DNA of 64,000 nt from a virus. Its lineage: Duplodnaviria > Heunggongvirae > Uroviricota > Caudoviricetes. The notes beneath the pieces are model-generated. The model was not told the DNA's origin. It saw only the letters and a program-made list of their open reading frames with translations, and did not search any database. Below, in pieces: positions 46,263-60,557 of the stretch. The translations under genes and the position numbers were made by a program. The first letter of the stretch is position 1; each line of letters opens with the position of its first letter. Where the stretch lies: IMG/VR virus record IMGVR_UViG_3300044557_000292, positions 259,388 through 323,387 of that record. One strand, written 5' to 3'.

Positions 46263-46976
46263 TCATAGAATCCCTCTTAAAGGCTTCTCTATGACGTTCA
46301 TAATGCTCTTTATCTTTCCGGGAGAGTCAATGGAAAGGCCAACTTCTGCTGGCGTCTTGTAATCATTGAGGAGGAGTCCCCACTCTGACTCCCTATTCTT
46401 CCAATCGTCCTCACTAATCTCATCAGGTCTGTCAGCATTATCCCAATAATTGCGCTCATTGAAAGATTCAGACGATATGAGCGTATCATAGTAATCCCCC
46501 TCCTCAGAGAAGACAAGACCGAGAACACTGCCACCATTATCATTCTCGATGAGGGTGACATGCCAGAAAACGTTAAGACTAGGGTCAATGGACGTTGAGT
46601 TCTTATCAAGATTACTCATGATCGTCCACAGTTGCCTGAAGATAGCGCGTCGTCGAGTATTCTCGTCTTCATTCCATGCAATGGGGTCATCACCGTAACC
46701 CTCATACAATGGAACCGATACACCATGATCATTAAGATCATCTAATCTGGATCCCTCGGGCAAGCTCATGCATACGTCAACAATCTTGCGGAATTTCTCA
46801 TAGTAGACAGCATCAAGTATCCTGCGAACATCGTATCCAACCTGGAACGGGTTATCACTGCTGGCAATGAACCCGTTGAAAATCTTAGCGTTCATATCCA
46901 AGAACTCCAATCTATTGACCTGTTGATTCAATCGTATTAATCGTAGAATTTCCAATCCGTGTTCTAGAAGATTCAA
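46263..46976 (-). CDS. hypothetical protein
   Basis: 237 aa ORF. Confidence 0.7.
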   Translation of the reverse strand: MNLLEHGLEILRLIRLNQQVNRLEFLDMNAKIFNGFIASSDNPFQVGYDVRRILDAVYYEKFRKIVDVCMSLPEGSRLDDLNDHGVSVPLYEGYGDDPIAWNEDENTRRRAIFRQLWTIMSNLDKNSTSIDPSLNVFWHVTLIENDNGGSVLGLVFSEEGDYYDTLISSESFNERNYWDNADRPDEISEDDWKNRESEWGLLLNDYKTPAEVGLSIDSPGKIKSIMNVIEKPLRGIL

Positions 46977-47097
46977 CGGCCTGCAGGATACTTCTCATGC
47001 AGCATGTCTAGAATGATCCATCAGATTGATGGCTGCTAACCTTCAGCATACTTCTCTATGTTCCCTATTCATCCAATATACGATTACAAGTTTACGG

Positions 47098-47169
47098 TTG
47101 CCTGAGAAGGACTCGAACCTCCAGTATCCCCGTCCAGGGCGGGGCGCGTTGCCATTGCGCTATCAGGCA
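47098..47169 (-). tRNA. tRNA-Gln(CTG), C33
   Basis: Cloverleaf; CCCCG-CCCTGGA-CGGGG. Confidence 0.8.
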
Positions 47170-47347
47170 ATAAAATGGGCGGCTGGTTCCATGCAGCCGG
47201 CCTTACGCCGGCCCATGGGGGTACTCAATGGATATGATCCATTCGTTGACCACCAGCACCCCACGATCATGGTTATCTTCAATCGCCATGATCGTGTTTC
47301 GCAGAATCCTGCATCATGTTGAAGACCACGATGCTATCAACTGTTAG

Positions 47348-47431
47348 CGGATGATGCGGGAGTCGAACCCGCCACGGTGTTACCCGAACCTCATTAGCAG
47401 TGAGGCGCTTTAACCGCTCAGCCTACCATCC
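47348..47431 (-). tRNA. tRNA-Ser(GCT)
   Basis: Long V-arm, G73, loop CTGCTAA. Confidence 0.92.
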
Positions 47432-47684
47432 ATACGCACTTCATATCAATTGCCGGAGTAAACCAGCAGTATCATTATAACTCTTGCAGCCCGATCGTGT
47501 CAACCCCATCAGAATCATGCGAGAAACCTGCCATGACCTCAGCCTCATGAGCATCGGTCTTACCGGCAGACCCTCCCCTGCTGATGGTGAAGCAGATGGA
47601 ATCATGGCGGTCGGAATTTCCTCACCAATTCCTCCTGAGTTTTATGATTACCCAACCCAGTGATGTGGACTCATCGTTACTCTC

Positions 47685-47855
47685 CTACTTCCTGCCGGGA
47701 TGAATAGGATGATCAGTGCTCCCAATAATCGCCGTGAGACGTGGAGCAGGTGTGAAGCCATCCATGAACGCATTCAGGCGCACCCTGGAGTCCTCAAGCT
47801 CTTTCCTCGTGAGGGGACCACGGTCAATCACGTAACTCTTGTCTATGCTACTCAT
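47685..47855 (-). CDS. small hypothetical protein (56 aa)
   Basis: RBS GGAGG, MSSIDKSYVIDRGP. Confidence 0.5.
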   Translation of the reverse strand: MSSIDKSYVIDRGPLTRKELEDSRVRLNAFMDGFTPAPRLTAIIGSTDHPIHPGRK

Positions 47856-47895
47856 TTTCCCGTCCTCCATCGTTTCAATGAATAATTGCATGGAG

Positions 47896-47968
47896 TGGAA
47901 GCGACGGGGATCGAACCCGCTTCCTCCTGCGTGCAAGGCAGGTGTCCTACCATTAGGACCTCGCCCCC
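47896..47968 (-). tRNA. tRNA-Ala(TGC)
   Basis: G3-U70, loop CTTGCAC. Confidence 0.92.
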
Positions 47969-48011
47969 ATTTGTGGAATACATGGACACAGTGCTATATC
48001 CATGCATCTAG

Positions 48012-48096
48012 CGGATGATGGGGGATTCGAACCCCCGGTGGTGTTACCCACTCCTGTTTTCTAGACAGGTGCACTAAACCGCTATGCGAATCATCC
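48012..48096 (-). tRNA. tRNA-Ser(AGA)
   Basis: Long V-arm, G73, loop CTAGAAA. Confidence 0.9.
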
Positions 48097-48097
48097 G

Positions 48098-48170
48098 AGC
48101 CAGCAATCGGTTTCGAACCGATGACCTTCTCATTACAAGTGAGATGCTCTACCATCTGAGCTATGCTGGC
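48098..48170 (-). tRNA. tRNA-Thr(TGT)
   Basis: Loop CTTGTAA. Confidence 0.93.
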
Positions 48171-48190
48171 AATTTTATGAAGTGATCCTT

Positions 48191-48548
48191 GAAGGCGGCC
48201 TGTAGCCACGGTTCTGTCCACATGATGACGAATAGGATCATCATGTTGTACCATCATCCATCTACTCCCGCTACCTGTCCTTATAACGATCGAATAAATC
48301 TAGACGTTCTGCGGTTTCACCGGGACTGGCTTGCCAAGGTTCCCCTCACGAGGATTAACCCACGATTTCTTACATCGTGCTTTTCACCCTTACCTGTGAT
48401 TCCTTATGGAATCCATCGGCGGTATGGTCTCTGCGGCGCTATCACTACTCTCACGGGCGGTGGGATTACCCCACGTCCCTATTCTATGGTGCCGTGAACT
48501 TCCTCTGAAAGAACGTCGTGTTCTACCAGCGATGATCCAGCTGCCTTC
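48191..48548 (-). ncRNA. rnpB: RNase P RNA (type A-like, P18 apparently absent)
   Basis: P1 GAAGGC/GCCTTC; GAGGAAGTTCACGG pairing with ACAGAACCGTGGCTA (P4); GATAGCGCCGCAGAGA..ACCGCC; GGTAAGGGTGAAA; AGATGGATGAT (P2). Confidence 0.88.
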
Positions 48549-48598
48549 AAAATGTTACGAGCTAACCCAATAAAAATTCGAGCAATCACGTATCATCG

Positions 48599-48668
48599 TG
48601 CTCATAATCGGAATCGAACCGATAACAATATACCCATATGGGAATAAAACCACCAGGTGAGCTAATAT
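48599..48668 (-). pseudogene. tRNA remnant
   Basis: Intact T-arm ATCGG-TTCGATT-CCGAT, partial acceptor, no usable D or anticodon arm. Confidence 0.45.
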
Positions 48669-48670
48669 TT

Positions 48671-49132
48671 TTAGACTAATAATGATGACAATTCCGTTAC
48701 CATTAACTCTAGTGTATGACGCCTTTCATTCATAAGAAACGAATTATTGACCTCATTACCATGATTATCAAATGATACCGATTGGTCCCACATGACCCAA
48801 TCATCCTTGTACTTGTTAATATCATTGATAAGTTCATTAGCAAGATATCTACAAGTTCTTAAACCCTCATAATCCATAAGATCATGGGTCAACAGGCCAT
48901 CATCAATGCTCGTTGATACGGAGTAAAGAATGCCATCAAAATCAAGGAATCCTACCGAATATCCCTCCGCGTCAAGACTTACATTCAAATGAACGTCATC
49001 CTGATTAGCGGTAAGAACATCGATAAAATATTGAAGCAAGATTATAGGTACGTCATCAGTATAACTCACACTGCCTACACGCTTGTTATTAATAACAAGA
49101 TCAGCGTACCCAGAACTTGGCTTTGATAACAA
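48671..49132 (-). CDS. hypothetical protein (AT-rich insert)
   Basis: 153 aa, RBS AAGGAG, TTG start. Confidence 0.75.
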   Translation of the reverse strand: MLSKPSSGYADLVINNKRVGSVSYTDDVPIILLQYFIDVLTANQDDVHLNVSLDAEGYSVGFLDFDGILYSVSTSIDDGLLTHDLMDYEGLRTCRYLANELINDINKYKDDWVMWDQSVSFDNHGNEVNNSFLMNERRHTLELMVTELSSLLV

Positions 49133-49169
49133 AACGTTCTCCTTAACTATATCTCCCTATATCGTGAGG

Positions 49170-49240
49170 AGCGGTCGACGGGAATCGAACCCGCATCATC
49201 TCACAGGCAATGAGACGCCTTACCATTGGGCTACGACCGC
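49170..49240 (-). tRNA. tRNA-Gly(GCC)
   Basis: U73, loop TTGCCTG. Confidence 0.9.
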
Positions 49241-49496
49241 GTGAAAACCTAGCCAGTCCCCGGAGTGATCATGCATAATCAGACCAGGGGGACGGCTAGG
49301 AACTAAAATGTCGGCCATCATGGATGGGAAGATCCTCGCCTAATTGGAAATACCATAGCGATTGATGTCTTCATGACTGCTAACCGGGCGATCCCCATGA
49401 CGCAACAGAATCCTCAGGGCTAGGCGCATCCACGCCTAGTCCTACTCCCCCATTCGGGAACTGCACGAGCATCACGCCTGCAAGAAGTGACCGACG

Positions 49497-49571
49497 TGCT
49501 TCCAACAGGATTCGAACCTGTGATCTCCTCCGTGTAAAGGAGGCGCCTTAGGCCAACTAGGCTACAGAAGC
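49497..49571 (-). tRNA. tRNA-Val(TAC)
   Basis: Loop TTTACAC. Confidence 0.92.
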
Positions 49572-49576
49572 AAGAT

Positions 49577-49620
49577 GTGTACAAGCGTGTACAAATAAGA
49601 TCGTGTACAAGCGTGCATAA
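49577..49620. repeat. GTGTACAA direct repeats (3 exact + 1 variant)
   Basis: At 49577, 49587, 49603, 49613. Confidence 0.7.
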
Positions 49621-49645
49621 TCCTATCCGCGTACTGGACGCGTGA

Positions 49646-49810
49646 TCAATCAACCCTAGAATCTTTATCAGGGTCTTTATCCTTCAGGGTCTTCATGAAG
49701 GCGATAGAGGAGTCAACCAGTGAGTTCATCTTACGCTCAGTAGAATTCCTAGGGTGAGCGACCCTGGTATAACCGGGAATAAGCTTCCTATCCGTTGGGT
49801 TCTTACCCAT
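49646..49810 (-). CDS. small hypothetical protein (54 aa)
   Basis: RBS GGAGG, MGKNPTDRKLIPG. Confidence 0.55.
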   Translation of the reverse strand: MGKNPTDRKLIPGYTRVAHPRNSTERKMNSLVDSSIAFMKTLKDKDPDKDSRVD

Positions 49811-49857
49811 ATCAGCCTCCAAATCCTGTGATTGTGATCCTATGTATGCTTGTTGCG

Positions 49858-49933
49858 TAGCGGGGGCGCGATTCGAACGCGCGATCTCTTGATTATGGGT
49901 CAAGCGAGGACAGCCGAGCTCCTCTACCCCGCA
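49858..49933 (-). tRNA. tRNA-Met(CAT), initiator-like acceptor, C33
   Basis: U1:U72 mismatch, CTTGA-CCCATAA-TCAAG. Confidence 0.85.
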
Positions 49934-49935
49934 AG

Positions 49936-50008
49936 TGCTTTCAACAGGACTCGAACCTGTGACCTATTCCGTGTGATGGAAGCGCGCTGCCATCTGCGCC
50001 ATGAAAGC
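49936..50008 (-). tRNA. tRNA-Val(CAC)
   Basis: Loop ATCACAC. Confidence 0.88.
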
Positions 50009-50220
50009 ATAAGTGGACGAGACTGCCTCTCCTTATGTCTTATCCATAATGCACCGTGCGTGATCATAAAACCCCCACGGGAGAGACGTGCTGACTGCTG
50101 TGGAGCATCAATGATCACAGCCTGTTATCACTGATCATCACCCCAATGGAGAACAACTCCCGTTATCTCAGGGACTGTTGCCCTCCACCAGTTACGACAA
50201 TGATCAATGGATGCTCTGCG

Positions 50221-50291
50221 AGCGGATGACGGGAATCGAACCCGCGTATCTTCCATGGGAGGGAAGCGCCTTACCATTGGGCTACATCCGC
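50221..50291 (-). tRNA. tRNA-Gly(CCC)
   Basis: U73, loop CTCCCAT. Confidence 0.92.
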
Positions 50292-50484
50292 AGCGCCAGG
50301 ATCTTACGTGTCCTGGCAGGAACACTCCAGACTCCATACTCCACCTCGAGGTCAGTATTTCCACCAGCCCCTACAGGAGTGCTGTCACGACTGCCCTCAC
50401 CGTCAACCACGTATCGGTTACAGGCTGGGGGGGGGAGTGCAGCTGCCCTAAACGTCTAGCTATAATAGAACAAACCAGACATCG

Positions 50485-50555
50485 AGGGGATGACGGGAGC
50501 CGAACCCGCGTAACCTGCTTGGAGGGCAGGCGCACTACCGTTATGCTACATCCCC
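50485..50555 (-). tRNA. tRNA-Gly(TCC), C33
   Basis: U73, loop CCTCCAA. Confidence 0.88.
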
Positions 50556-50683
50556 ATGTATCCTGAAACCATCACCGTGGCATGCTCAAGATGGACGAAG
50601 GGTGTTCAGGACTGCACACCCTCTGTTTCCTTATCCCCCTATTGCGAGGTGAAATCACGATGATGACAAAAGATTTATGTCAA

Positions 50684-51261
50684 TTATCTGTGAGGGTTAG
50701 ATCTTTCAGATTGTAATTTACGAAGGCATTCTTTGCTACAAGATTTTCTAACCTTCCTTGATGTATAAGAAAACTCACGCCCACACGCTTCACAAACGCT
50801 AACTCTACTACGTTTTTTGAGCGTATTCAATCTTCTGCATTCAAAGTAATTAACAGAAGTACGACTCACAAAACCAGTACCGTTCAATGGAACATTGCTG
50901 GATGAAGTTTACGCATCGATTCTGAAGTTTTCTGTCTAGTTTTACTACTTTGAGACCAAGTTCTCGTAAGACTATTAGGAATTTGCCCGTAGAATAATGG
51001 CTTAAGAGTTACAAACCATTTCATCTCTAGAAAATCCTTAATCCTATTGGAATTCTCGCATTGTTCAAGAATTTGAAATCTAAGAGCGTGAGGATCTCCA
51101 CCGTGTCTATTAAACCACTTTATAAATTCCTTACGATTATGATTACCAGACTTCAAACCCTTTAAGTGAGCTTTCCATCGTTCTTGAATATCCTTAGATT
51201 GACCAACGTAAAGACACGCTCCGTTGTAAGAATCAAAAATTGCGTAAATCCCACAAGCCAT
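50684..51261 (-). CDS. GIY-YIG homing endonuclease split in two frames (51261..50884 and 50887..50684)
   Basis: CGIYAI..LYVGQS..R, NUMOD3-like SSKTRQKTSES; CxxC..CS..C Zn finger in -1 frame. Confidence 0.75.
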
Positions 51262-51344
51262 TGCTTATTACCACCTTAATGTTTTAAGAAACAAACGTTA
51301 AGATATCATTAGTAATGAAAATCAATCCTCTCAAGAGGATATCG

Positions 51345-51415
51345 TACCCCATGATTGAGTTGAACAATCTTAAGATGTTTATAAGACATCCTTGCGCTAC
51401 CGGCGACAATGGGGT
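51345..51415 (-). tRNA. tRNA-Ile(TAT), weak D-arm
   Basis: ACCCCAT/ATGGGGT, GATGT-CTTATAA-ACATC, GATTG-TTCAACT-CAATC. Confidence 0.7.
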
Positions 51416-51427
51416 GAATGTCCACAA

Positions 51428-51527
51428 TATGGGTTCACCGTGATTAATCACGCCGTGAGCATGAGGACTAGGGTAAGGATAACCTAACCCTCACCTTGAC
51501 GGCAATTGGAATCACGGTGAACCCATA
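51428..51527 (-). ncRNA. candidate 100-nt rod-like RNA
   Basis: Perfect 18-bp terminal stem plus nested GCCGT/ACGGC, GTGAGG/CCTCAT, TAGG/CCTA. Confidence 0.45.
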
Positions 51528-51656
51528 ATTAATAGATATAGGAGGTTTCTCATGACTGATCAGATTCAATGCTGCCACAATGATTCCCATGCAATGGAAT
51601 CATTCCACTGATCCATCATGACCGATCCGGGGAAATGATCAAAACCCGGATCAGCG

Positions 51657-51731
51657 TAGCCATATCGGGGCTCGAACCCGAATTCTCTTCATTGAAGGTG
51701 AAGTGAGATAAACCAGTTACTCTATATGGCC
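51657..51731 (-). tRNA. tRNA-Glu(TTC), C33
   Basis: Loop CCTTCAA; 5' end overlaps stop of upstream endonuclease. Confidence 0.9.
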
Positions 51732-52861
51732 CTTCTAGTTCTCCCTAGCTTCCTAATAGGAACACCAAGAAAATTTAATCTATTCTCTACAGTAGTATGA
51801 GAAATTCCTAATTGTTCAGCAATTGCGTCCATACTCATTTCCTTTATAGAATAACATTTCTGAATTTCATCATCTAGGTTATTTGCTATTCCATATCTAC
51901 CAAGTTGAGCACAAATTCGTGAACAATATGTTTTATCTTTAACTTTTCTTCTAAAGATTGTAAAATGTTTTCCGCAATAATCACAAACATAATGGTATCC
52001 ATCTTTAGGCGTTTTGTGTATTTCTTGAAGAAGCAATCCGTGTTCTTTTAAACATCTTCTCACATGATTCCTACTGATGTGAAGTTTCTTGGCTGTGTCA
52101 TATGTACTGATTCCAGATTTATAGGTATCAATGATAATATCCTCAATACTATCAACTTCTTCATGATAACATTCATCTGCCTTTCTTGTTTTTGGATTTA
52201 TTCTATTGTCGCAAGAAACATTATTGCGTTTCAAGAATTTATCTAAAGATCCTCGACTGATATGAAGTTTTAATGATATATCGCGTATGGCAAAACCAGA
52301 CCGATAAAGTTCGTTAATAGTATTTTCAATACCATCAATTTCGTCATGATAATGCTTTTCAGCTCGTTTCTTAATTTCTTCAGCTCCAAGACTGATTTCG
52401 GGGTCCAATCTATTAGGCCAAGGAGCACAGATAGCATGATTCATAAGACATTCACCAATATTACGGCCATATTTTATCAGTAATGTTTCCATCACGTCAA
52501 GATCTGTTTTAAACCACGCATAAGCAATGAATGTTTTAATAACATCACCCTCACTATTGGAATTAATGTGCTCCTTAACATCCCTACCACTACTCTTATA
52601 ACGACGCCAACCAGGATTGCCGCTATTGTGCTTATCTTTACTATAATAATCACAAGCTAACTTGCGCTGACCTATGTATGTCTTGCCATCAGACTTGGTT
52701 GTTATCAGATAAATATAACCGTATGGAGTATCATGCGGATCATGCTCAGTCTTAATCTCGTCAGACTTCAACCTGAACATGGTTCGTAGTCGCTCTACGC
52801 GTTCATGCAATGGTAATGATTCCATACGATATATGGCACCAATTAGTATCAAGAATCGCAC
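51722..52861 (-). CDS. GIY-YIG (Seg-like) endonuclease with HTH repeats and Zn finger
   Basis: YGYIYLIT..KTYIGQR, three HTH-like repeats, CDYC..CSRIC; start uncertain. Confidence 0.85.
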   Translation of the reverse strand: MRFLILIGAIYRMESLPLHERVERLRTMFRLKSDEIKTEHDPHDTPYGYIYLITTKSDGKTYIGQRKLACDYYSKDKHNSGNPGWRRYKSSGRDVKEHINSNSEGDVIKTFIAYAWFKTDLDVMETLLIKYGRNIGECLMNHAICAPWPNRLDPEISLGAEEIKKRAEKHYHDEIDGIENTINELYRSGFAIRDISLKLHISRGSLDKFLKRNNVSCDNRINPKTRKADECYHEEVDSIEDIIIDTYKSGISTYDTAKKLHISRNHVRRCLKEHGLLLQEIHKTPKDGYHYVCDYCGKHFTIFRRKVKDKTYCSRICAQLGRYGIANNLDDEIQKCYSIKEMSMDAIAEQLGISHTTVENRLNFLGVPIRKLGRTRRAI

Positions 52862-52887
52862 AAATTATGACCCTTTAGGGTCATAAG

Positions 52888-52961
52888 CGCCCCGAACAGG
52901 ATTCGAACCTGCAACCTACTGGGTAGAAACCAGCCGCTCTGATCCATTGGGCTACCGAGGC
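52888..52961 (-). tRNA. tRNA-Arg(TCT), acceptor stem imperfect
   Basis: Loop TTTCTAC; 3' acceptor strand one base short. Confidence 0.8.
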
Positions 52962-53058
52962 ATTAGGATTGGCGTGGTCGCGGATAAGACGATTATTCCA
53001 CATTTTCATTTTTCAGATTCAGCCGATCCTCTATATAATCAACCGGCTACCAATCCAG

Positions 53059-53132
53059 TGCCCGCAGTCGGATTCGAACCGGCAACCTTCTCCTTAGGGG
53101 GGAGACGCTCTATCCAGTTGGGCTATGCGGGC
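53059..53132 (-). tRNA. tRNA-Arg(CCT), C33
   Basis: Loop CCCCTAA. Confidence 0.88.
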
Positions 53133-53309
53133 ATGATGCAGACGTGATGAACGCGATCAGGAAGAATCTTTTCCATCAGACCACCGACATGCATAAGAGT
53201 CGGGCGGGATTCGAACCCGCATCTCTTCCATTACGCGCTCACCGCGTCTGTGCTCGGGGATTCCGGAATCCCCGCTTGAAACCGCACGGTTGCAATCCAT
53301 GCGGCCAAG

Positions 53310-53392
53310 TGCCCCGAGCGGGAGTCGAACCCGCACTTCCGAGGAAAGTTCTTTTTAAGAGAACCGCGTATACCAATTCCAGCCATCGGGGC
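53310..53392 (-). tRNA. tRNA-Leu(TAA)
   Basis: V-arm present, loop CTTAAAA. Confidence 0.92.
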
Positions 53393-53492
53393 GTTGGATG
53401 AGTTTACCGACATCATTAGGTCTAAGTATAAACGCTATTCCATTATCAAGCATTTGTTCACATTCACACGGTCAACGTGGCGAACAGTATTC

Positions 53493-53521
53493 ATTATATC
53501 ACGGTGCTGCGTGCTTGACAA
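53493..53521 (-). promoter_or_regulatory. sigmaA-type promoter inside tRNA array
   Basis: TTGTCA-17 nt-TATAAT with TG extension. Confidence 0.65.
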
Positions 53522-53566
53522 CGGCGTGTCGCAATCCCCCGCTATAAGTTTTGAATAATGGTCAGA

Positions 53567-53637
53567 CGTGGAGACGGGATTCGAACCCGCGTATAATTGA
53601 ATTGCGGTCAATTGCCTAACCATTTGGCTACTCCACG
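53567..53637 (-). tRNA. tRNA-Cys(GCA), C33
   Basis: U73, loop CCGCAAT. Confidence 0.88.
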
Positions 53638-53638
53638 G

Positions 53639-53710
53639 TACGGGCAGATCGAGTTGAACGATCCTTGCTTCTGTATCAGAGAAGTGTACTCACCGATGTA
53701 CGATGCCCGC
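53639..53710 (-). tRNA. tRNA-Ile(GAT)
   Basis: CTTCT-CTGATAC-AGAAG, T-loop TTCAACT. Confidence 0.8.
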
Positions 53711-53762
53711 GTATTCTACTCATTCTGCTGTTCGCGTGTGAGCACGAGGAGCGTGCTCATCG

Positions 53763-53836
53763 TCACAACGGGAGGACTCGAACCTCCGACATCCTGATTA
53801 TGATTCAGGCGCTCTCACCAGCTGAGCTACGTTGCG
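53763..53836 (-). tRNA. tRNA-Met(CAT) elongator (or Ile2)
   Basis: C1-G72 paired, loop ATCATAA. Confidence 0.88.
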
Positions 53837-53947
53837 TTACGAGATATAGACGGTCACGGCTGAGTCTACGATCAGTAAACATCCCCGCGGGCTGTGCGGC
53901 CACATGCCAGCGCTTCCTCCTATTGAAAGTCGCGCAAGCACCCACCG

Positions 53948-54019
53948 TGGATCCAACGAGAGTCGAACTCGCCACATCCTCCGTGCGGGGGAGGATCGCC
54001 ACCATCGGCATTTGGACCC
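53948..54019 (-). tRNA. tRNA-Ala(CGC), C33
   Basis: G3-U70, loop CCCGCAC. Confidence 0.85.
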
Positions 54020-54114
54020 ATAATAATGAATGTTATAATTGTGCTCGATTCGACATGCTGGTACGATGTACTAGAACCTCGATAGGGACCATAATGCTTC
54101 CATCATGATCCTCG

Positions 54115-54188
54115 TGCGAATGGATCGGCTTGAACGATTGACATCATCCTTATCAGGAATGCGCTCTAACCATCTGAGCTACATCCGC
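54115..54188 (-). tRNA. tRNA-Ile(GAT)
   Basis: Loop CTGATAA. Confidence 0.85.
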
Positions 54189-54219
54189 GAGCCTTATAAA
54201 TAGTTGAATAAGGAGTCAA

Positions 54220-54636
54220 TCAATTTGACAAACTTTTAATCGCGTTAATCACTTCTGTGCACTCCTTAACTTGTAATGATTCCACGCCATAACGATCAGC
54301 CACATTTTCAAGACGTGCTTCAAAGCTTACAAGATCCCCGCGTGAATCAACAGACATATCAGCCTTATTAAGGAGTATTCCTAACGTAGTATTCAGACCT
54401 TCCATCGTACCATGCGCTGCTACTTCTTTCCAGTGAACATAACCTTGGGATCTTAGCAAATCACCACCAATCTTAGCGTGAGTACGATTGTCCCCAATCA
54501 TGTACCCAAGATCATGCACCCATCCTAATAATGCTGCTTCTTGAGGATCAAGCCCATATTCTGATGCATGATTAAACATGTATTCTGCTACTCCTCGTGA
54601 GTGTGAAGCCCTAGTAGAATCAATAAAACTAATCAA
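54220..54636 (-). CDS. HD-domain phosphohydrolase (AT-rich insert)
   Basis: SHS, WVHDLG, HAKIG, AAHG, KAD. Confidence 0.85.
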   Translation of the reverse strand: MISFIDSTRASHSRGVAEYMFNHASEYGLDPQEAALLGWVHDLGYMIGDNRTHAKIGGDLLRSQGYVHWKEVAAHGTMEGLNTTLGILLNKADMSVDSRGDLVSFEARLENVADRYGVESLQVKECTEVINAIKSLSN

Positions 54637-54691
54637 TAATTCTCCTTATTAATAAATTGACACTCGAACGTACAAACCCATAACTAGGGTA

Positions 54692-54730
54692 CGTGCGGGG
54701 GAGGATCGCCACCAGCGGCATTTGGACCCA
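54692..54730 (-). pseudogene. 5' half of tRNA-Ala(CGC), duplicate of 53982..54020
   Basis: 38/39 identity, ends at the anticodon loop. Confidence 0.8.
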
Positions 54731-54760
54731 GGTAATGCTAACCGTATGGCTAGCATATCG

Positions 54761-54835
54761 TGCGGATGATGTGACTTGAACACATGACCTCATTCTTATC
54801 AGGAATGCGCTGCTAACCATCTGAGCTACATCCGC
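54761..54835 (-). tRNA. tRNA-Ile(GAT)
   Basis: Loop CTGATAA; paralogue of 54115..54188. Confidence 0.88.
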
Positions 54836-54883
54836 ATGTCTCATATAATGAATGACGGGCAGCAAGCCACGCCGATGATGGTC

Positions 54884-54975
54884 AGGTTCAACCCCTCTAC
54901 GCTGGGAATACCCGCGTTGTCAGACGCTTGCCCACTGAGCGCGGAGAGGTTCAACCCCTCTACGCTGGGAATACC
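54884..54975 (-). CRISPR. repeat-spacer-repeat mini-array, type I-E-like
   Basis: Two identical 29-nt repeats (minus GGTATTCCCAGCGTAGAGGGGTTGAACCT) and a 34-nt spacer. Confidence 0.5.
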
Positions 54976-55017
54976 TCCTAGGTCATCCGGGTACAATCAT
55001 CTACTCCCCTCACCACG

Positions 55018-55090
55018 AGCCAGCACCCGGAATCGGACCGGGGACCTTCTCATTACGAGTGAGACGCTCTACCATCTGAGCTATGCGGGC
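55018..55090 (-). tRNA. tRNA-Thr(CGT)
   Basis: Loop CTCGTAA, T-loop TCCGATT. Confidence 0.85.
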
Positions 55091-55267
55091 ATACACGATT
55101 TTATCCAGATCGTGAACTGGTTGGCGCGCCCTTAGTTAGATGCCGGTCAATCACTTCCACCAATTGTTAGCATCGTTCCCGCGAACAGCACGCGGACGCC
55201 ATCCCGCGTGACACTCACCCGAGTACGGTTCGGAGGTTGGGGCTGTGGACACTCCGATGGAGAGACG

Positions 55268-55341
55268 TGTTCGCAGCTGGATTTGGACCAGCGACCGCCT
55301 CCGTGTCAGGGAGGAACGCTACCGGACTGCGCCATGCGAAC
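55268..55341 (-). tRNA. tRNA-Val(GAC)
   Basis: Loop CTGACAC, T-loop TCCAAAT. Confidence 0.85.
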
Positions 55342-55403
55342 ATATGAGACCAAGACGCCTGATCCACAGGCAATCAACGATTGCCATGGACGTGGACGCG
55401 GAG

Positions 55404-55476
55404 AGCCAACAGATGGAATCGAACCATCGACCTTCTCATTACTGGTGAGACGCTCTACCAACTGAGCTATGCAGGC
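55404..55476 (-). tRNA. tRNA-Thr(AGT), C33
   Basis: Loop CCAGTAA. Confidence 0.85.
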
Positions 55477-55583
55477 AAGATGGACGGCTTGGGTGATCCC
55501 ATTTGCCGTCACGACTCGAAGCATGAACCCGCCAGTTCATGTTTCTCATCGTGACGGCCGCACTACTAGGAATACCGTCAATG

Positions 55584-55657
55584 TGCCTCCAGCCGGGTTC
55601 GAACCGGCGGCATCTTGTTTCGAAGACAAGCGCTCTGATCCGCTGAGCTATGGAGGC
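55584..55657 (-). tRNA. tRNA-Arg(TCG)
   Basis: Loop CTTCGAA. Confidence 0.9.
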
Positions 55658-55789
55658 AAGTAGTGATTGGCGAGGCGTGCAACCATGCTGCATCTGCGGA
55701 ATCGGACCGGTGCAGGAATACGGACTCGAGCCGTTACCCTTCGCCACGGGGCAACCAGCCCCAATCCTACCACACCGGGTAGGACGCAG

Positions 55790-55862
55790 TTCTCCCAATC
55801 GGTCTCGAACCGATGACACCCTGCTTAAGAGGCAGGTGCTCTACCATCTGAGCTATAGGAGC
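55790..55862 (-). tRNA. tRNA-Lys(CTT), G1:A72 mismatch
   Basis: Loop CTCTTAA. Confidence 0.87.
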
Positions 55863-55900
55863 ATTATCTCCCAAATCATCAATCACAATGACTGGAATTG

Positions 55901-55974
55901 GGTGACTGGAGGAACTCGAATCCTCGACCTGCTGAACCACAATCAGCCGCTCTAACCATCTGAGCTACAGCCAC
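55901..55974 (-). tRNA. tRNA-His(GTG)
   Basis: C73, loop TTGTGGT; base -1 is T. Confidence 0.9.
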
Positions 55975-55976
55975 AG

Positions 55977-56049
55977 CTCCCCGTGAAGGATTCGAACCTC
56001 CAACCTCTGCATTCAGAGTGCAGCGCACGGCCAAACATGCTGACGGGGA
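55977..56049 (-). tRNA. tRNA-Gln(CTG)
   Basis: U1-A72, G73, loop CTCTGAA. Confidence 0.9.
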
Positions 56050-56090
56050 ATATTAGGACTCATTGAGATTACTATTCTCAATGCTTCCAG

Positions 56091-56161
56091 CTGCCCACCA
56101 TGGATTCGAACCATGCTTGGAGGTACCAAAAGCCTCAGTCCTGCCAATAGACGAGTGGGCA
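56091..56161 (-). tRNA. tRNA-Gln(TTG)
   Basis: U1-A72, G73, loop TTTTGGT. Confidence 0.88.
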
Positions 56162-56422
56162 ATATGAAAATCCAGCTCTTAACGGAAGCTGGAATGAAGC
56201 TCTTAATATGCGAATCCGCACTAGACTATCGTTCTCAATGATTCCTAGTTTCTAGTATCATTGCGTCCATGAGCTACCGACGTCCAAGTGAATGGCGGTC
56301 AAGCACATGCGAGTACAGTGATCTCTATGATCACAAATGATGCTCACATTGGATTAACGCTTAACCAGATCCGCTGCAGTCCAGTTCGAGAGGCGGGCGT
56401 GGTGCGCACGCAAGCCGCCAAG

Positions 56423-56495
56423 TGCTCTCAGTGGGATTCGAACCCGCAGCCTCCTGTTCCGTAGACAGACGCTCTATCCGTTGAGCTATGAGAGC
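56423..56495 (-). tRNA. tRNA-Arg(ACG)
   Basis: Loop CTACGGA. Confidence 0.92.
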
Positions 56496-56528
56496 AAAAT
56501 AACAAAAACGACTCTAAAAGCCATTTCG

Positions 56529-56600
56529 TGCCCCATGGGAATTCTGCCATCCCGACCCGATGCTTAAAAGGCACCTGTTCTCCTTCTGAACTAATGAGGC
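56529..56600 (-). tRNA. tRNA-Lys(TTT), non-canonical T-arm
   Basis: Loop CTTTTAA; T-arm GGGATGGCAGAATTCCC. Confidence 0.75.
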
Positions 56601-56827
56601 AAATATAAGATTTGATGGAAGCATAGCCTGGTCATGGCTCCAATCCATGTTACCATCCCGTCACCATGATTACGATTGCTAGCATTACCGTCATCATGAT
56701 GGCTGCGAGTCACGTTCTATACGCTCATGGTCCGGAGTCTAACCGGATCCCATTGGAGACCTGCACTCCACTCTCGCACAGCTACGAGCCGCCCATCCTA
56801 TCCTCATAAGAGGTAAGGATCGCATCG

Positions 56828-56899
56828 TACGCCCGCCGGAACTTGAATCCGGTCCAGCGGTTTTGGAGACCATTATGCTTCCAATCACACTACAGACGA
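56828..56899 (-). tRNA. tRNA-Trp(CCA), degenerate stems
   Basis: Loop CTCCAAA. Confidence 0.75.
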
Positions 56900-56901
56900 C
56901 G

Positions 56902-56975
56902 TGCCCTCCACGGGATTCGAACCCGCACTGAACAGCTCCTAAGGCTGTTGCCTCTGCCAGTTGGGCTAAGAGGGC
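56902..56975 (-). tRNA. tRNA-Leu(TAG), short variable loop
   Basis: Loop CTTAGGA, 74 nt. Confidence 0.9.
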
Positions 56976-57174
56976 TTGAATGCGCAATAAATGGTGGGTT
57001 TATTGTCATCACCGGGACATTGACGCCACGCGTTCATCCAGAGCATTCGCTGGGGACAACCGGTCAGGCTTGGTGTTACGATTCTATCGTAACACACAAC
57101 TGCGAATCGTGATGATTGGCGTGTCTTAAGTGTGAGCAGGTGAGCCCCATCTGAGGGGATGATGCTCAAGCGCG

Positions 57175-57247
57175 TGGAACCGGGGGGAGTCGAACCCTCT
57201 ACCTCTTCCGTGCTGGGGAAGCGCTCTACCAGTTGAGCTACGGTCCC
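57175..57247 (-). tRNA. tRNA-Ala(AGC), C33
   Basis: G3-U70, loop CCAGCAC. Confidence 0.88.
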
Positions 57248-57248
57248 G

Positions 57249-57320
57249 CACGTCGGCAAGGAATCGAACCCTGATCGGGAGGTTTGGAAGCTCCTGTCCT
57301 TCCAGTTGGACGACCGACGC
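57249..57320 (-). tRNA. tRNA-Trp(CCA)
   Basis: G73, loop TTCCAAA. Confidence 0.87.
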
Positions 57321-57329
57321 ATGATGCGG

Positions 57330-57400
57330 ACAATGAGTAGGACTGTCGCGCCCGCCTGGCATGAAGCCAGGCAGCGGGTTAAACCCCGCTGTACTCATTG
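57330..57400 (-). ncRNA. non-canonical cloverleaf RNA with TCA anticodon
   Basis: 9-bp acceptor CAATGAGTA/TACTCATTG, 7-bp D stem, CCTGG-CTTCATG-CCAGG, 4-bp T stem, no V-arm. Confidence 0.55.
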
Positions 57401-57458
57401 CCCTGATATGATGATGTAGACGAGGTCACAGCCACCCTATCATTCGTCTACACCAGCG

Positions 57459-57538
57459 TGGTGCGTGAGGGACTCGAACCCCCGTACCCGAGAGAGCTGA
57501 TTTACAGTCAGCCGCATTTGCCGCTCTGCCAACGCACC
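57459..57538 (-). tRNA. tRNA-Tyr(GTA)
   Basis: V-arm, loop CTGTAAA. Confidence 0.92.
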
Positions 57539-57630
57539 ATGTGATCACCGCTGGGCTGCTGTGCTTCCACCCTGACCCTGTGACGATGACGGCGACCCGT
57601 GAGTACATTATATGCTCACACCGTCGCCAG

Positions 57631-57704
57631 TGCCGACAGTCCGGGTCGAACGGACAACCTCCGAGGCTTCAACTCGGCGCTCTTGCCAATTGAGCTATGA
57701 CGGC
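57631..57704 (-). tRNA. tRNA-Phe(GAA)
   Basis: Loop TTGAAGC. Confidence 0.9.
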
Positions 57705-57705
57705 G

Positions 57706-57788
57706 TGCATCCAGTCTGATTTGAACAGACATGCCTTATCGGCAATGGCTTCTGAAGCCATCGTGTATACCAGTTTCACCATGAATGC
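57706..57788 (-). tRNA. tRNA-Leu(CAG), long V-arm
   Basis: Loop TTCAGAA. Confidence 0.88.
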
Positions 57789-57930
57789 AAATGGCGGCTT
57801 CCCCGCCAGCACTGGTGTTCTCATCGAACGAGCAATGGCGTTGAACGGGCGCATCACAGACTGAACCTCATCCAACCGATGGGATTTTTACCAGACTGAA
57901 CCCTGGAGTGCCTTTGCCGTGGCTCCGCCG

Positions 57931-57995
57931 TAGTCTCAACAGGACTCGAACCTGATTCGTCTGACATGGGAGGCAGACGTACTACCAATGAGACA
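57931..57995 (-). pseudogene. D-armless tRNA-like RNA (CCC loop)
   Basis: GTCTCA/TGAGAC acceptor, 10-nt linker in place of D-arm, GTCTG/CAGAC stem, CAGG-TTCGAGT-CCTG. Confidence 0.55.
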
Positions 57996-58135
57996 TTTCT
58001 AAATTATGTAGACAATAGCATGAATGTGGGCGTTGCACCCACAGGGTCGCTATAGCATTCGGCTCGTTAGTGGTCACGACTAACCATGATAATCTTTACG
58101 ATTATGCTGCTAACTCAAAGCCTACTGATACTGCG

Positions 58136-58224
58136 CGGTTGATGAGGGATTCGAACCCCCGGTGGACGTTAATCCACGCTTGTTTAGTAGACAAGTGCCA
58201 TAAGCCAGACTCGGCCAATCAACC
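58136..58224 (-). tRNA. tRNA-Ser(ACT)
   Basis: Long V-arm, G73, loop CTACTAA. Confidence 0.9.
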
Positions 58225-58422
58225 ATATGATTGCTTGACGGACAATCATGAGGACAAAGCTCCGCGGAGCGCTCCGCCCACCGGCTAGGCCATCAACCCA
58301 GCGTAATGTGCGTCCCTGCTTGCAGATGCTGTCAGGATTCCTCATCTGCATGTCCATCCTCACAATAAGTCCTGTCATTATTGGATGGGCTGGCTAGATA
58401 CGTTGCCATATCCAGGGGCGCG

Positions 58423-58509
58423 CGGATGATGGGGGATTTGAACCCTCGGTGGTGTGACCCACTCCGTCTTTCGAGGACGGTGCACTAAACCAGACTATGC
58501 GAATCATCC
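58423..58509 (-). tRNA. tRNA-Ser(CGA)
   Basis: Long V-arm, loop CTCGAAA. Confidence 0.92.
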
Positions 58510-58545
58510 ATATGCTGATCATGTGGCCATTGGCAGCAAGATCCG

Positions 58546-58619
58546 TCCCTCGTATCGGCGACGATCCGATCACTCCCTGATTAAGAGTCAGGTGCTCTAC
58601 CAACATGAGCTAACGAGGG
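58546..58619 (-). tRNA. tRNA-Lys(CTT), atypical T-loop
   Basis: Loop CTCTTAA, T-loop ATCGTCG. Confidence 0.82.
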
Positions 58620-58620
58620 G

Positions 58621-58694
58621 TTGCGGAGAATGGATTCGAACCATTGACTTCGTGGGTATGAGCCACGCGAGCTACCGAACTGCTCTACTCCGCG
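58621..58694 (-). tRNA. initiator tRNA-fMet(CAT)
   Basis: C1:A72 mismatch, CGTGG-CTCATAC-CCACG. Confidence 0.9.
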
Positions 58695-58768
58695 TGTCCC
58701 CTATGGGATTCGAACCCATACTAGACGGCTCCTTAGGCCGACGCCTCTACCAATTGGGCTAAAGGGAC
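58695..58768 (-). tRNA. tRNA-Leu(AAG), short variable loop
   Basis: Loop CTAAGGA, 74 nt. Confidence 0.87.
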
Positions 58769-58855
58769 ATGATACGTGGATGCGATCATGATCGTCACCA
58801 GTCACGCATCCACGATAGGGCCAACTGGTGACAACCGTCGCTGTCATCGTGTGCC

Positions 58856-58946
58856 CGGTTCTCAGGGGGATTCGAACCCACGCTCGCTGGGAATGACCCC
58901 TCGCACCACTTTATCGGCGGCTGCTACCATTGCATCATTGAGAACC
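58856..58946 (-). ncRNA. class II tRNA-like RNA with 8-bp acceptor, G73, loop CGATAAA
   Basis: GGTTCTCA/TGAGAACC, T-loop TTCGAAT, long V-arm. Confidence 0.55.
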
Positions 58947-58949
58947 ACG

Positions 58950-59035
58950 TGCCCTCACCCGGATTCGAACCGAGAGCCCCATCACGGGAAGACGGGTTTG
59001 AGCCGTCCGCGTCTACCAATTCCAGCCATGAGGGC
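58950..59035 (-). tRNA. tRNA-Leu(CAA)
   Basis: Long V-arm, loop CTCAAAC. Confidence 0.92.
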
Positions 59036-59191
59036 AATTTGCTTAATGCTCTGTAAGGAGAATCACTTATGATCATCAGGACTGCAAGCGCAAGCCGTAT
59101 GCGCTCACCGGGTGACTATCCCCCGCCAAGGGAAGAATTGCCGCCAACAATTCTTGTCATCATCCCCACGGTTGTCCATTCCCGTGGTAAG

Positions 59192-59265
59192 TACTCTCCA
59201 TGGGATTCGAACCCATGCTAGACGGTCCCTGAAACCGCCTCCTCTGCCAATCGGGCTAGGAGAGC
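59192..59265 (-). tRNA. tRNA-Leu(CAG), short variable loop
   Basis: Loop TTCAGGG, 74 nt. Confidence 0.87.
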
Positions 59266-59322
59266 ATAACGTGCCGTCAATCCCACCGTGGTTTGGGGAG
59301 TTGAACCATTGACGGCACATAG

Positions 59323-59396
59323 TAGCCTCATCGGGACTCGAACCCGAAGTCTCATCCTTGAGAGGGATGCGAGGTGACCAGTTACTCTATGAGGCC
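59323..59396 (-). tRNA. tRNA-Glu(CTC)
   Basis: Loop CTCTCAA. Confidence 0.92.
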
Positions 59397-59397
59397 G

Positions 59398-59482
59398 CGG
59401 ATGATGAGGGATTCGAACCCCCGGTGGTGTTACCCACTCTTGTTTTCAAGACAAGTGCACTCGACCGCTATGCGAATCATCC
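59398..59482 (-). tRNA. tRNA-Ser(TGA)
   Basis: Long V-arm, loop CTTGAAA. Confidence 0.92.
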
Positions 59483-59581
59483 AAATATTGTATGCAGTAA
59501 GAGCTAGGAGCCCCCGCCGCGCCGGGCCACAGCCTTACCGGCTTGTCCAGCCCTCGAGTAAGCATCCTTATCGAGCCCGCG

Positions 59582-59653
59582 CGACCACGACGGGAATCGG
59601 ACCCGCTCTAGCTTGCTCGACAGGCAAGTGTCCAACCGGAGGACCTCGTGGCC
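59582..59653 (-). tRNA. tRNA-Asp(GTC)
   Basis: G73, loop CTGTCGA, T-loop TCCGATT. Confidence 0.85.
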
Positions 59654-59728
59654 ATAATGATGCAGACAGCATTACGTGATGAAAACAATGTCAGAACTTT
59701 CATCGGAATCTGTCCACATTCACCTACG

Positions 59729-59803
59729 CTCCCTGTACTAGAGTCGAACTAGTTGCCTCTCGATTAACAGTCGAGCGCAGCCGCCGAAGGCTGCTCACAG
59801 GGA
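59729..59803 (-). tRNA. tRNA-Asn(GTT)
   Basis: U1-A72, G73, loop CTGTTAA. Confidence 0.9.
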
Positions 59804-59809
59804 ATAATA

Positions 59810-60250
59810 GATGGGCGTTTAACGTGCGCCCATCATGCACGGCATGTTTTTCTATCCGACTGCTCGGACTGCTTAGACCAGCTCACCACTTGGACATGAC
59901 TGACAGCATGCGCTGTCAACCGTCACCGCGGATTGCCTATAGGGAACATCTGAAGAAGTATGTTTATTGTCTACCGGCGCTCGACCTTCACAACGAGCTT
60001 GGTACCCGGCTCACGGATTATACGTACTGGGACACAATGTGACCCCGGGTAGCATCTTGAGGACAAGACGCGACCACACCTCGCTTTCTCCGTGCGAGAT
60101 CCAGAATACTGGCGCTCCATCATGCAGACGAGTTGACTAGACCCGTATGGTCTCCTGACCAAGCGCGATAATTCTTTAACATTCCGGTACCGTGGCCGTC
60201 GCATTGCTTCCTCATCTGGAGTTGCACCAGACCTCATTATTAGATTATCA
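59810..60250 (-). ncRNA. candidate large structured ncRNA
   Basis: About 440 nt without tRNA or credible CDS, at least 9 hairpins. Confidence 0.45.
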
Positions 60251-60315
60251 GACCATCCTCACCATGATTCCATGCGGTCAAGCATGTCCACAGGGTGACC
60301 AGATGACGGTCATCG

Positions 60316-60389
60316 TCGGGATGACAGGATTTGAACCTGCGGCATCTTGCTCCCAAAGCAAGCGCGCTACCAAGCTGCGCTACATCCCG
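60316..60389 (-). tRNA. tRNA-Pro(TGG)
   Basis: C1-G72, loop TTTGGGA. Confidence 0.93.
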
Positions 60390-60484
60390 AAATATTAAGT
60401 TATGTCACTACGCTGGACGGTTTCCCGTTGAGCGCGGCACATCCAATGATAACACACCCGTTAGGGTACGCGGTCAGCGGCGTG

Positions 60485-60557
60485 TCGGGATGGCGGGGAT
60501 CGAACCCGCTGTCTCCTGCTCCCGAAGCAGGCGGATTACCTTTCCTCCCTCATCCCG
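60485..60557 (-). tRNA. tRNA-Pro(CGG)
   Basis: C1-G72, loop TTCGGGA. Confidence 0.9.

Follow-up and report, generated by a model that had tools for sequence, protein, structure and literature searches.

A34 transfer RNAs in place of G34 isoacceptors in the tRNA array of a large phage: unmodified adenosine or inosine?

Why transfer RNAs (tRNAs) with an unmodified adenosine at position 34 (A34) are nearly absent from cells is a question without a settled answer; Raval et al. (2026 preprint, 10.64898/2026.05.15.725136) call it a paradox, since such tRNAs do hardly any harm to E. coli. How, then, are codons read by an element that carries a whole series of A34 anticodons? The question is raised by a 64,000-nt stretch of DNA (hereafter the window) of the IMG/VR virus record IMGVR_UViG_3300044557_000292, a single contig of 419,707 bp with 49.5% G+C, of which the window covers bases 259,388-323,387. 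An initial annotation, made from the letters of the window, had reported six A34 tRNAs there, called the set eukaryote-like and proposed that it works either by wobble of unmodified A34 or through a broadened deaminase encoded elsewhere on the element. We find that all six are tRNA genes, that the isoacceptors with guanosine at position 34 (G34) are missing from the whole record in four of the codon boxes concerned, and that four of the six tRNAs probably escape conversion of A34 to inosine (I34) and read U-ending codons directly.

Genes were called with ARAGORN and scored against the Rfam tRNA model RF00005 (gathering score 29 bits), and the anticodon loops (positions 32-38) were read from the sequence. 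On the minus strand, this confirmed Ser(AGA) at 48011..48096 (loop CUAGAAA, 56.5 bits), Thr(AGU) at 55403..55476 (CCAGUAA, with C33, 62.2 bits), Arg(ACG) at 56422..56495 (CUACGGA, 63.6 bits, the ordinary type of bacterial TadA substrate), Ala(AGC) at 57174..57247 (CCAGCAC, again with C33, 56.4 bits), Ser(ACU) at 58135..58224 (CUACUAA, 50.4 bits, directed at the split Ser/Arg box) and Leu(AAG) at 58694..58768 (75 nt, CUAAGGA, 56.6 bits). All six form a cloverleaf above the Rfam threshold, and their range of 50.4-63.6 bits compares with 38-72 bits for the rest of the array. The synthetase identity elements, chosen after the E. coli identity sets, are in place in every one of them: the long variable arm of class II tRNAs and G73 in both Ser tRNAs, G1:C72, C2:G71, G35 and U36 in Thr(AGU), C35 and G36 in Arg(ACG), G3:U70 in Ala(AGC), and A73 with a Leu-type D arm (3-bp stem, AAUUGGUAGA-like loop) in Leu(AAG), which has a 5-nt variable loop. 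Thr(UGU) is followed by Ser(AGA), and Trp(CCA) by Ala(AGC), with a gap of 0, and Leu(AAG), Met(CAU) and Lys(CUU) each show a one-base overlap. Because the A34 genes abut standard tRNA genes in this way (gaps of 0 or -1 nt), a silence of the A34 copies alone, which the initial annotation had named as one way in which its proposal might fail, is unlikely. We are inclined to regard the six as working phage tRNAs that are expressed and charged.

The second way in which the proposal might have failed, namely G34 isoacceptors lying elsewhere on the element, does not apply. Genes for Ser(GGA), Thr(GGU), Ala(GGC) and Leu(GAG) are lacking not only in the window, as had been noted, but in all 419,707 bp of the record. 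ARAGORN called 50 tRNAs and a transfer-messenger RNA in the window and the identical set from the whole genome, while the matches of the Rfam tRNA model across the whole record were confined to genome positions 306,485-319,943, which is the tRNA array (window positions 47096..60557, minus strand). With one Lys(UUU) gene detected by Rfam only, the array holds all tRNA genes of the record, none being found outside 47096-60557 by either whole-record search. For Ala, Ser, Thr, Leu and Arg, the array offers A34, U34 and C34 anticodons without G34, whereas Val and Ile are served by G34 tRNAs and Pro by neither kind. The sole coexistence of A34 and G34 for one codon pair is that of Ser(ACU) with Ser(GCU) (47347..47431, minus strand).

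Such a set is unusually rich. Among 246,393 predicted bacterial tRNAs, 695 carry an ANN anticodon other than ACG, mostly Leu(AAG) and Thr(AGU) in Firmicutes and Mollicutes (Raval et al. 2026), and a 2021 review has it that the anticodons missing from bacteria are missing from the tRNA sets of phages as well (PMC8007984). Finding five non-ACG A34 genes among 51 has a probability of ~4e-7 at the bacterial rate and of 0.003 at the rate of 2.0% in other viral loci, which had been chosen for holding an A34 tRNA. The enrichment of A34 is real and beyond chance. Full-text searches of the literature returned no paper treating A34 tRNAs in phages.

A34 tRNAs are, on the other hand, not rare in viral contigs. 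A Ser(ACU) pattern matched at least 120 stretches in IMG/VR, and ARAGORN called a Ser(ACU) in 74 of the 80 loci examined; a joint pattern for Thr(AGU) and Ala(AGC) gave at least 66 Thr(AGU) and at least three Ala(AGC) genes in 79 loci examined. A few of the sampled contigs are giant-virus bins. Both Ser(ACU) and Thr(AGU) occur widely among viral contigs. Among the matches listed, Thr(AGU) and Thr(GGU) occur together in none of 21 loci with at least eight tRNAs, Ser(ACU) and Ser(GCU) in two of 23, and no sampled locus has more than two non-ACG A34 genes, against five here. As A34 and G34 are so rarely found together in other loci, replacement of G34 by A34 is a recurring phage design.

Whether A34 is converted to I34 depends on the enzyme and on the loop. 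The whole record was searched in six frames with PF00383, PF14437 and PF02137, and open frames of at least 60 residues were scanned with a relaxed zinc motif. PF00383 and PF14437 matched a single open reading frame (ORF) at genome positions 182,060-182,522 on the minus strand, which also contains the only HAE...PCxxC motif in the six frames. It matches PHROG 174, a deoxycytidine monophosphate (dCMP) deaminase family (E = 6e-38), and the human dCMP deaminase 2w4l (E = 9e-34), while the TadA model, with its cut-off of 150, gives it 17.7 bits; the ORF thus encodes a dCMP deaminase. The ADAR/ADAT1-type domain PF02137 had no match in any of the six frames of the whole record. The idea of a broadened deaminase elsewhere on the element was thus not borne out: no TadA-, ADAT- or ADAR-type tRNA deaminase is recognisable in any frame of the record, with the limit that an enzyme of unknown fold would escape these searches.

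Host TadA is the other candidate editor. The E. coli and Klebsiella enzymes edit within UACG (extended, YUACGAA) and the relaxed S. pyogenes enzyme within UAMG (YUAMGRA), and the streptococcal Leu(AAG) is not edited by E. coli TadA in vitro (PMC11472039); when 15 ANN anticodons were placed in an Arg2-type loop in E. coli, inosine was found only in ACG, AAG and AUG (PMC11066159). The Arg(ACG) loop of the phage fits the UACG core, and this tRNA would presumably be converted to I34 by host TadA. The Leu(AAG) loop is an exact fit to the relaxed YUAMGRA rule only, and Leu(AAG) may likewise become I34 in a host whose TadA has the relaxed streptococcal specificity. The loops of the other four, Ser(AGA), Thr(AGU), Ala(AGC) and Ser(ACU), are not those of TadA substrates: they depart from the core at position 35 and/or 36, and those of Thr(AGU) and Ala(AGC) also at position 33, in agreement with the earlier remark that the two tRNAs combining C33 with A34 would be poor substrates. 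Since these four loops lack the U-A-C/A-G core, their A34 is most likely unmodified; moreover, I34 in Ser(ACU) would pair with AGA, an Arg codon, so that at least Ser(ACU) should stay A34. We thus lean towards the view that Ser(AGA), Thr(AGU), Ala(AGC) and Ser(ACU) keep A34 as it is. Of the two proposals made at the outset, wobble by unmodified A34 is the one that the loop sequences favour.

With A34 unmodified, the four tRNAs would serve as dedicated Watson-Crick readers of UCU, ACU, GCU and AGU, Ala(AGC) probably reading GCC in addition. Together with their U34 and C34 partners, they would provide direct readers for the NNU, NNA and NNG codons of these boxes and leave NNC to the G34 tRNAs of the host. 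Measurements in E. coli are consistent with such a division of labour. There, unmodified AGA read the U-ending codon at 19.7% and the C-ending one at 1.4%, AGU at 10.7% and 1.4%, and ACU at 9.4% and below detection, i.e. 8- to 14-fold or more in favour of U, whereas AGC read both equally (1.3% and 1.2%) (PMC11066159). The cognate codons are frequent in the phage, as is expected of codon-supplementing phage tRNAs. In 361 long non-overlapping ORFs that cover 84% of the phage, taken as a proxy for the output of a gene caller, GCU accounts for 33% of Ala codons and is the most frequent of them, UCU for 21% and AGU for 15% of Ser, ACU for 23% of Thr and CUU for 25% of Leu; the five U-ending codons of the non-Arg A34 tRNAs make up 8.7% of all codons.

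Several observations weigh against unmodified A34. GCC, UCC, ACC and CUC together account for 6.8% of the codons in the same ORFs, and the C:U ratio in the A34 boxes is no lower than in the Val and Gly boxes, which have G34 tRNAs. The expectation that the A34 boxes would be the most U-biased had to be rejected, as they do not show the strongest preference for U. If A34 is unmodified, UCC, ACC and CUC need G34 tRNAs of the host, a need that I34 would remove, and it is odd that an array covering 20 amino acids should have no good reader of its own for three NNC codons. As a separate matter, codon use in the 361 ORFs is lopsided in a strand-symmetric way: 16% of the Lys codons are AAA and 16% of the Phe codons UUU, while GAU, CAU and AAU are the favoured forms. 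The two Lys(CUU) genes are in keeping with this bias, of which avoidance of runs of A/T, and not translational selection, is the likely cause.

The same codon counts supply the best argument for eukaryote-style inosine decoding, in which all or most of the six A34 tRNAs would be converted to I34 by a host TadA much broader in specificity than those characterised, or by an unrecognised phage enzyme, and would read NNU, NNC and NNA: the phage uses the NNC codons of these boxes often and shows no avoidance of them. The presence of A34, U34 and C34 without G34 in five boxes is the eukaryotic pattern, and a self-sufficient set would suit an element that looks equipped for independence from host tRNAs. 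Indeed, the array covers all 20 amino acids and contains a type A RNase P RNA (48187..48548, minus strand, Rfam 148.4 bits), which is part of a tRNA maturation kit. None of its tRNA genes encodes CCA, nearly all having a C after the discriminator, and a gene for a CCA-adding enzyme (PF01743, E = 6e-32) lies at genome positions 325,027-326,637, ~1.6 kb past the end of the window. These two maturation components count equally in favour of the six genes being working tRNAs. The Leu(AAG) loop, furthermore, is exactly of the YUAMGRA type edited by S. pyogenes TadA (PMC11472039). Nonetheless, we consider inosine decoding of the whole set unlikely, given the lack of a TadA, ADAT or ADAR-like gene in any frame, the four loops without the U-A-C/A-G core, two of which lack U33 as well, and the misreading of AGA as Ser that I34 in Ser(ACU) would entail. 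A precedent from bacteria points the same way, Oenococcus oeni editing only two of its four A34 tRNAs as far as the summary in PMC11066159 goes.

The two C33-containing A34 tRNAs to which the initial annotation had drawn attention are both real as judged by their loops, but C33 is not specific to A34. It takes the place of the near-universal U33 in eight of the 50 tRNAs, namely Gln-CUG (47096), Met-CAU (49857), Gly-UCC (50484), Glu-UUC (51656), Arg-CCU (53058), Cys-GCA (53565), Thr-AGU (55403) and Ala-AGC (57174), and four of these, Gly-UCC, Glu-UUC, Arg-CCU and Cys, have no other copy in the phage. Two of six A34 tRNAs and six of 44 others have C33 (Fisher P = 0.24), and C33 as a device linked to A34 was rejected on account of the six non-A34 tRNAs. 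Elsewhere, C33 is rare, with 18 of 1,053 tRNAs (1.7%; P ~2e-6) in 159 other IMG/VR loci among the matches listed, where Thr(AGU) and Ala(AGC) have U33 in 69 of 69 cases although the search pattern allowed C. A search of IMG/VR for the exact context of the C33-A34 Thr and Ala tRNAs gave only five chance matches in a coding gene. C33 is thus a property of the whole tRNA set of this phage.

Such an excess of altered loops brings to mind defence evasion, in which exchanging G34 for A34 and U33 for C33 would shield phage tRNAs from anticodon nucleases and toxins of the host or of rivals that are aimed at G34/U33 loops, with decoding of NNU kept as the minimum. To our knowledge, no nuclease or toxin is specific for the GNN tRNAs of Ser, Ala or Leu, which counts against this explanation of A34. 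So do the 69 of 69 U33 loops among the matches listed for Thr(AGU) and Ala(AGC), by which A34 does not need C33, and the lack of a significant link between C33 and A34 in the phage itself. On the other side, loop changes are unusually frequent here, eight of 50 against the 18 of 1,053 among the matches listed; loop mutations in phage tRNAs that block anticodon nucleases, and anticodon avoidance, have been described (PMC10264068), as has a toxin against tRNA-Thr(GGU) loops (PMC13617354). Evasion is also compatible with unmodified A34. For the excess of C33, escape from anticodon nucleases seems to us the most natural reading; as an account of the A34 set, evasion is improbable.

Where the A34 genes came from can be addressed by comparing each with its paralogues in the array and with same-anticodon tRNAs from the 159 other viral loci, a sample with no more than four Ser(AGA), two Leu(AAG) and three Ala(AGC). 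All identities to foreign tRNAs given here are the best among the matches listed. Ser(AGA) is 93% identical to the phage's own Ser(UGA) (59397..59482, minus strand) and 77% to the nearest foreign Ser(AGA); Thr(AGU) is 86% identical to its own Thr(UGU) (48097..48170, minus strand) and 81% to a foreign Thr(AGU); for Leu(AAG) the figures are 79% to its own Leu(UAG) (56901..56975, minus strand, 75 nt) and 71%. As they are nearer to their own U34 paralogues than to foreign A34 tRNAs, these three look home-made and probably arose within the phage lineage. The remaining cases are more even: Ser(ACU), whose closest paralogue is likewise Ser(UGA), shares 78% with the UCN-type Ser tRNAs of the phage, 80% with a foreign Ser(ACU) and only 66% with its own Ser(GCU), and Ala(AGC) shares 73% both with its own Ala(UGC) and with a foreign Ala(AGC). 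Arg(ACG) is 80% identical to its own Arg(UCG). The route would be duplication of a tRNA gene followed by a change at position 34. By the E. coli identity rules, position 34 is ignored by the Ser, Ala and Leu synthetases and little read by that for Thr, which would make such a change easy. The likeness to the eukaryotic set would then be convergence inside the phage and not import.

Duplication followed by mutation could, however, also leave neutral by-products, i.e. position-34 mutations tolerated in spare copies of a duplication-prone array, the A34 genes being minor and decaying. Paralogues and odd members do abound: Gln, Lys, Trp and Leu(CAG) are each duplicated, there are three genes for Ile and four with the anticodon CAU, the T loop of one Lys(UUU) is aberrant, and one tRNA-like gene has an anticodon loop of 8 nt. 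A34 tRNAs of four-codon boxes are, moreover, nearly neutral in E. coli (Raval et al. 2026), and Thr(AGU) has a U4-U69 mismatch. Yet the 4-69 mismatch is common to Thr(CGU), and the A34 genes score no lower than their neighbours. None of them shares its box with another tRNA directed at NNY, and it is exactly in these boxes that G34 is absent; random loss would not give five one-for-one replacements, and the same replacement recurs in unrelated viral contigs. We therefore regard neutral decay as very unlikely.

A bolder claim takes the set as a whole. Either the phage reads ~9% of its codons with unmodified A34 tRNAs, some of them with C33, or all five non-Arg A34 tRNAs are converted to I34 by a deaminase that needs neither U33 nor C35 nor G36. 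We hold this to be quite unlikely, but its consequences would be considerable. The first form would represent a natural, large-scale use of an anticodon class that cells are thought to avoid; the second would imply a specificity unlike that of any known bacterial enzyme and eukaryote-type inosine decoding in the infection of a bacterial virus.

Other members of the array deserve mention. Lys(UUU) (56529-56600, minus strand), found by Rfam only with 41.5 bits and missed by ARAGORN, has the T loop GGCAGAA, which is not of the TTCRANY type. The tRNA-like gene of 91 nt (58856-58946, minus strand) lies between Leu(AAG) and Leu(CAA); ARAGORN gives it a two-base anticodon, and we read its anticodon loop as 8 nt (GAUAAAGU). 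Three Leu tRNAs for CUN codons (UAG at 56901-56975, AAG at 58694-58768 and CAG at 59191-59265) are 75 nt long and have a Leu-type D arm and A73 without a long variable arm; short Leu tRNAs are common in phages, making up 32 of 118 Leu tRNAs in other viral loci among the matches listed. Of Arg(UCG) and Arg(CCG), the array has the former (55583-55657) and lacks the latter, whereas bacteria usually show the opposite for CGN codons; Ala(CGC) and Pro(GGG/AGG) are lacking as well. Homing endonuclease genes are interspersed among the tRNAs: two genes resemble those of GIY-YIG homing endonucleases, and a small gene with an HD domain lies there too (50884-51261, 51722-52861 and 54220-54636). The HD-domain protein found no homologue except itself among 5.8 billion proteins.

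As for the element, IMG/VR classes the record as having direct terminal repeats, and CheckV estimates it to be 100% complete. Both contig ends (genome 1-1120 and 419309-419707) fall within a single array of clustered regularly interspaced short palindromic repeats (CRISPR) and share a repeat variant, so that the supposed terminal repeat may consist of CRISPR repeats; a circularly closed assembly would give the same picture. Type I-E cas genes are present on the record, and the window encodes a gyrase, an NAD-dependent ligase, a PIF1-type helicase and a dUTPase. Terminase Pfam models had no matches, GyrA has one relative only, at 27% identity, and we found no close cultured relative of the phage. 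The ORFs that flank the array, at 46263-46976 and 61059-61781, have no related loci in viral contigs. A 361-aa protein encoded at 44367-45452 (minus strand) has no Pfam match and 110 relatives in a library of 1.8 billion proteins, the nearest at 56% and 44% identity, and its conserved block looks sigma-factor-like; an alignment of 12 sequences of this protein had no match in viral contigs and, among metagenome contigs, matched three distant ones (29-33%) with no tRNAs in the stretches examined.

For the host, the CRISPR repeat of the phage had no match, and its Cas1 had no relative among 185,579 species genomes. Three weak pointers lean towards the Actinomycetota. The nearest protein-atlas clusters belong there, one tRNA-Ser is 90% identical over 62 nt to those of Streptomyces phages, and the best matches of Cas7e are on Streptomyces plasmids (41-44% identity), although Cas7e does not discriminate, being 39% identical to that of Edwardsiella. 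Streptomyces phage BillNye was set aside as a model because Arg(ACG) is its only A34 tRNA. No WhiB gene was found. If the host were a high-G+C actinobacterium, the missing anticodons GGC, CGC, GGA, GGU, GAG, CCG and GGG would largely be the readers of its favourite codons, which would fit supplementation.

We believe that this locus is of use beyond its own case, as the phage breaks the A34 rule in five codon families at once and does so without a deaminase of its own. Phage arrays of this kind offer natural and intact A34 tRNAs on native backbones, with built-in controls in the form of U34 and C34 paralogues and of U33 and C33 versions, and could be used to study decoding range, TadA specificity and fitness cost. 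The findings are also relevant to the annotation of phage tRNAs and to the prediction of the host tRNAs on which a phage still depends.

How does the set compare with known systems? The label eukaryote-like holds for Ala, Ser, Thr, Leu and Arg, where, as in the ADAT2/ADAT3-dependent I34 set of eukaryotes, ANN, UNN and CNN anticodons occur without GNN, and Gly is decoded with GCC in both. It does not hold for Val and Ile, which have G34, for Pro, which has neither, or for Ser(ACU), so that A34 without G34 does not extend to all eight amino acids of the eukaryotic set (Thr, Ala, Pro, Ser, Leu, Ile, Val and Arg, or TAPSLIVR). Ser(ACU) has no counterpart there, and we know of no eukaryote in which it has been seen. 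Furthermore, the phage has neither ADAT nor TadA, and its A34 tRNAs are paralogues of its own bacterial-type tRNAs, among which is a class II Tyr tRNA. Closer parallels are found in the Lactobacillales, where A34 replaces G34 while U34 and C34 are kept, as in Leuconostoc and Oenococcus oeni, which have Leu-AAG, Thr-AGU and others beside Arg-ACG, and in Streptococcus with Leu-AAG (PMC8007984; PMC11066159; PMC11472039; Raval et al. 2026). There, TadA edits only ANG anticodons and the others stay A34 (PMC11066159; PMC11472039). The phage set differs in being carried by a virus with 49.5% rather than 30-40% G+C, in comprising five anticodons other than that for Arg, Ala-AGC and the split-box Ser-ACU among them, and in having two tRNAs with C33.

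Mycoplasma capricolum tRNA-Thr(AGU), as cited in PMC11066159, is likewise a natural A34 tRNA that works without inosine. The tRNA set of Mycoplasma is minimal, and this member of it decodes several codons of the ACN box, whereas the phage has Thr(UGU) and Thr(CGU) besides, so that its A34 tRNA need only read ACU. The tRNA clusters of T4-type phages and of cluster C1 mycobacteriophages (PMC10264068) resemble the present one in their size, in belonging to large phages of lytic type, in their homing endonucleases and in deviations of the anticodon loop, but the anticodon rule formulated for phages (PMC8007984) is broken five times here. Taken together, the set is a variant of two known things, the codon-supplementing tRNAs of phages and the bacterial A34 sets of the Oenococcus type.

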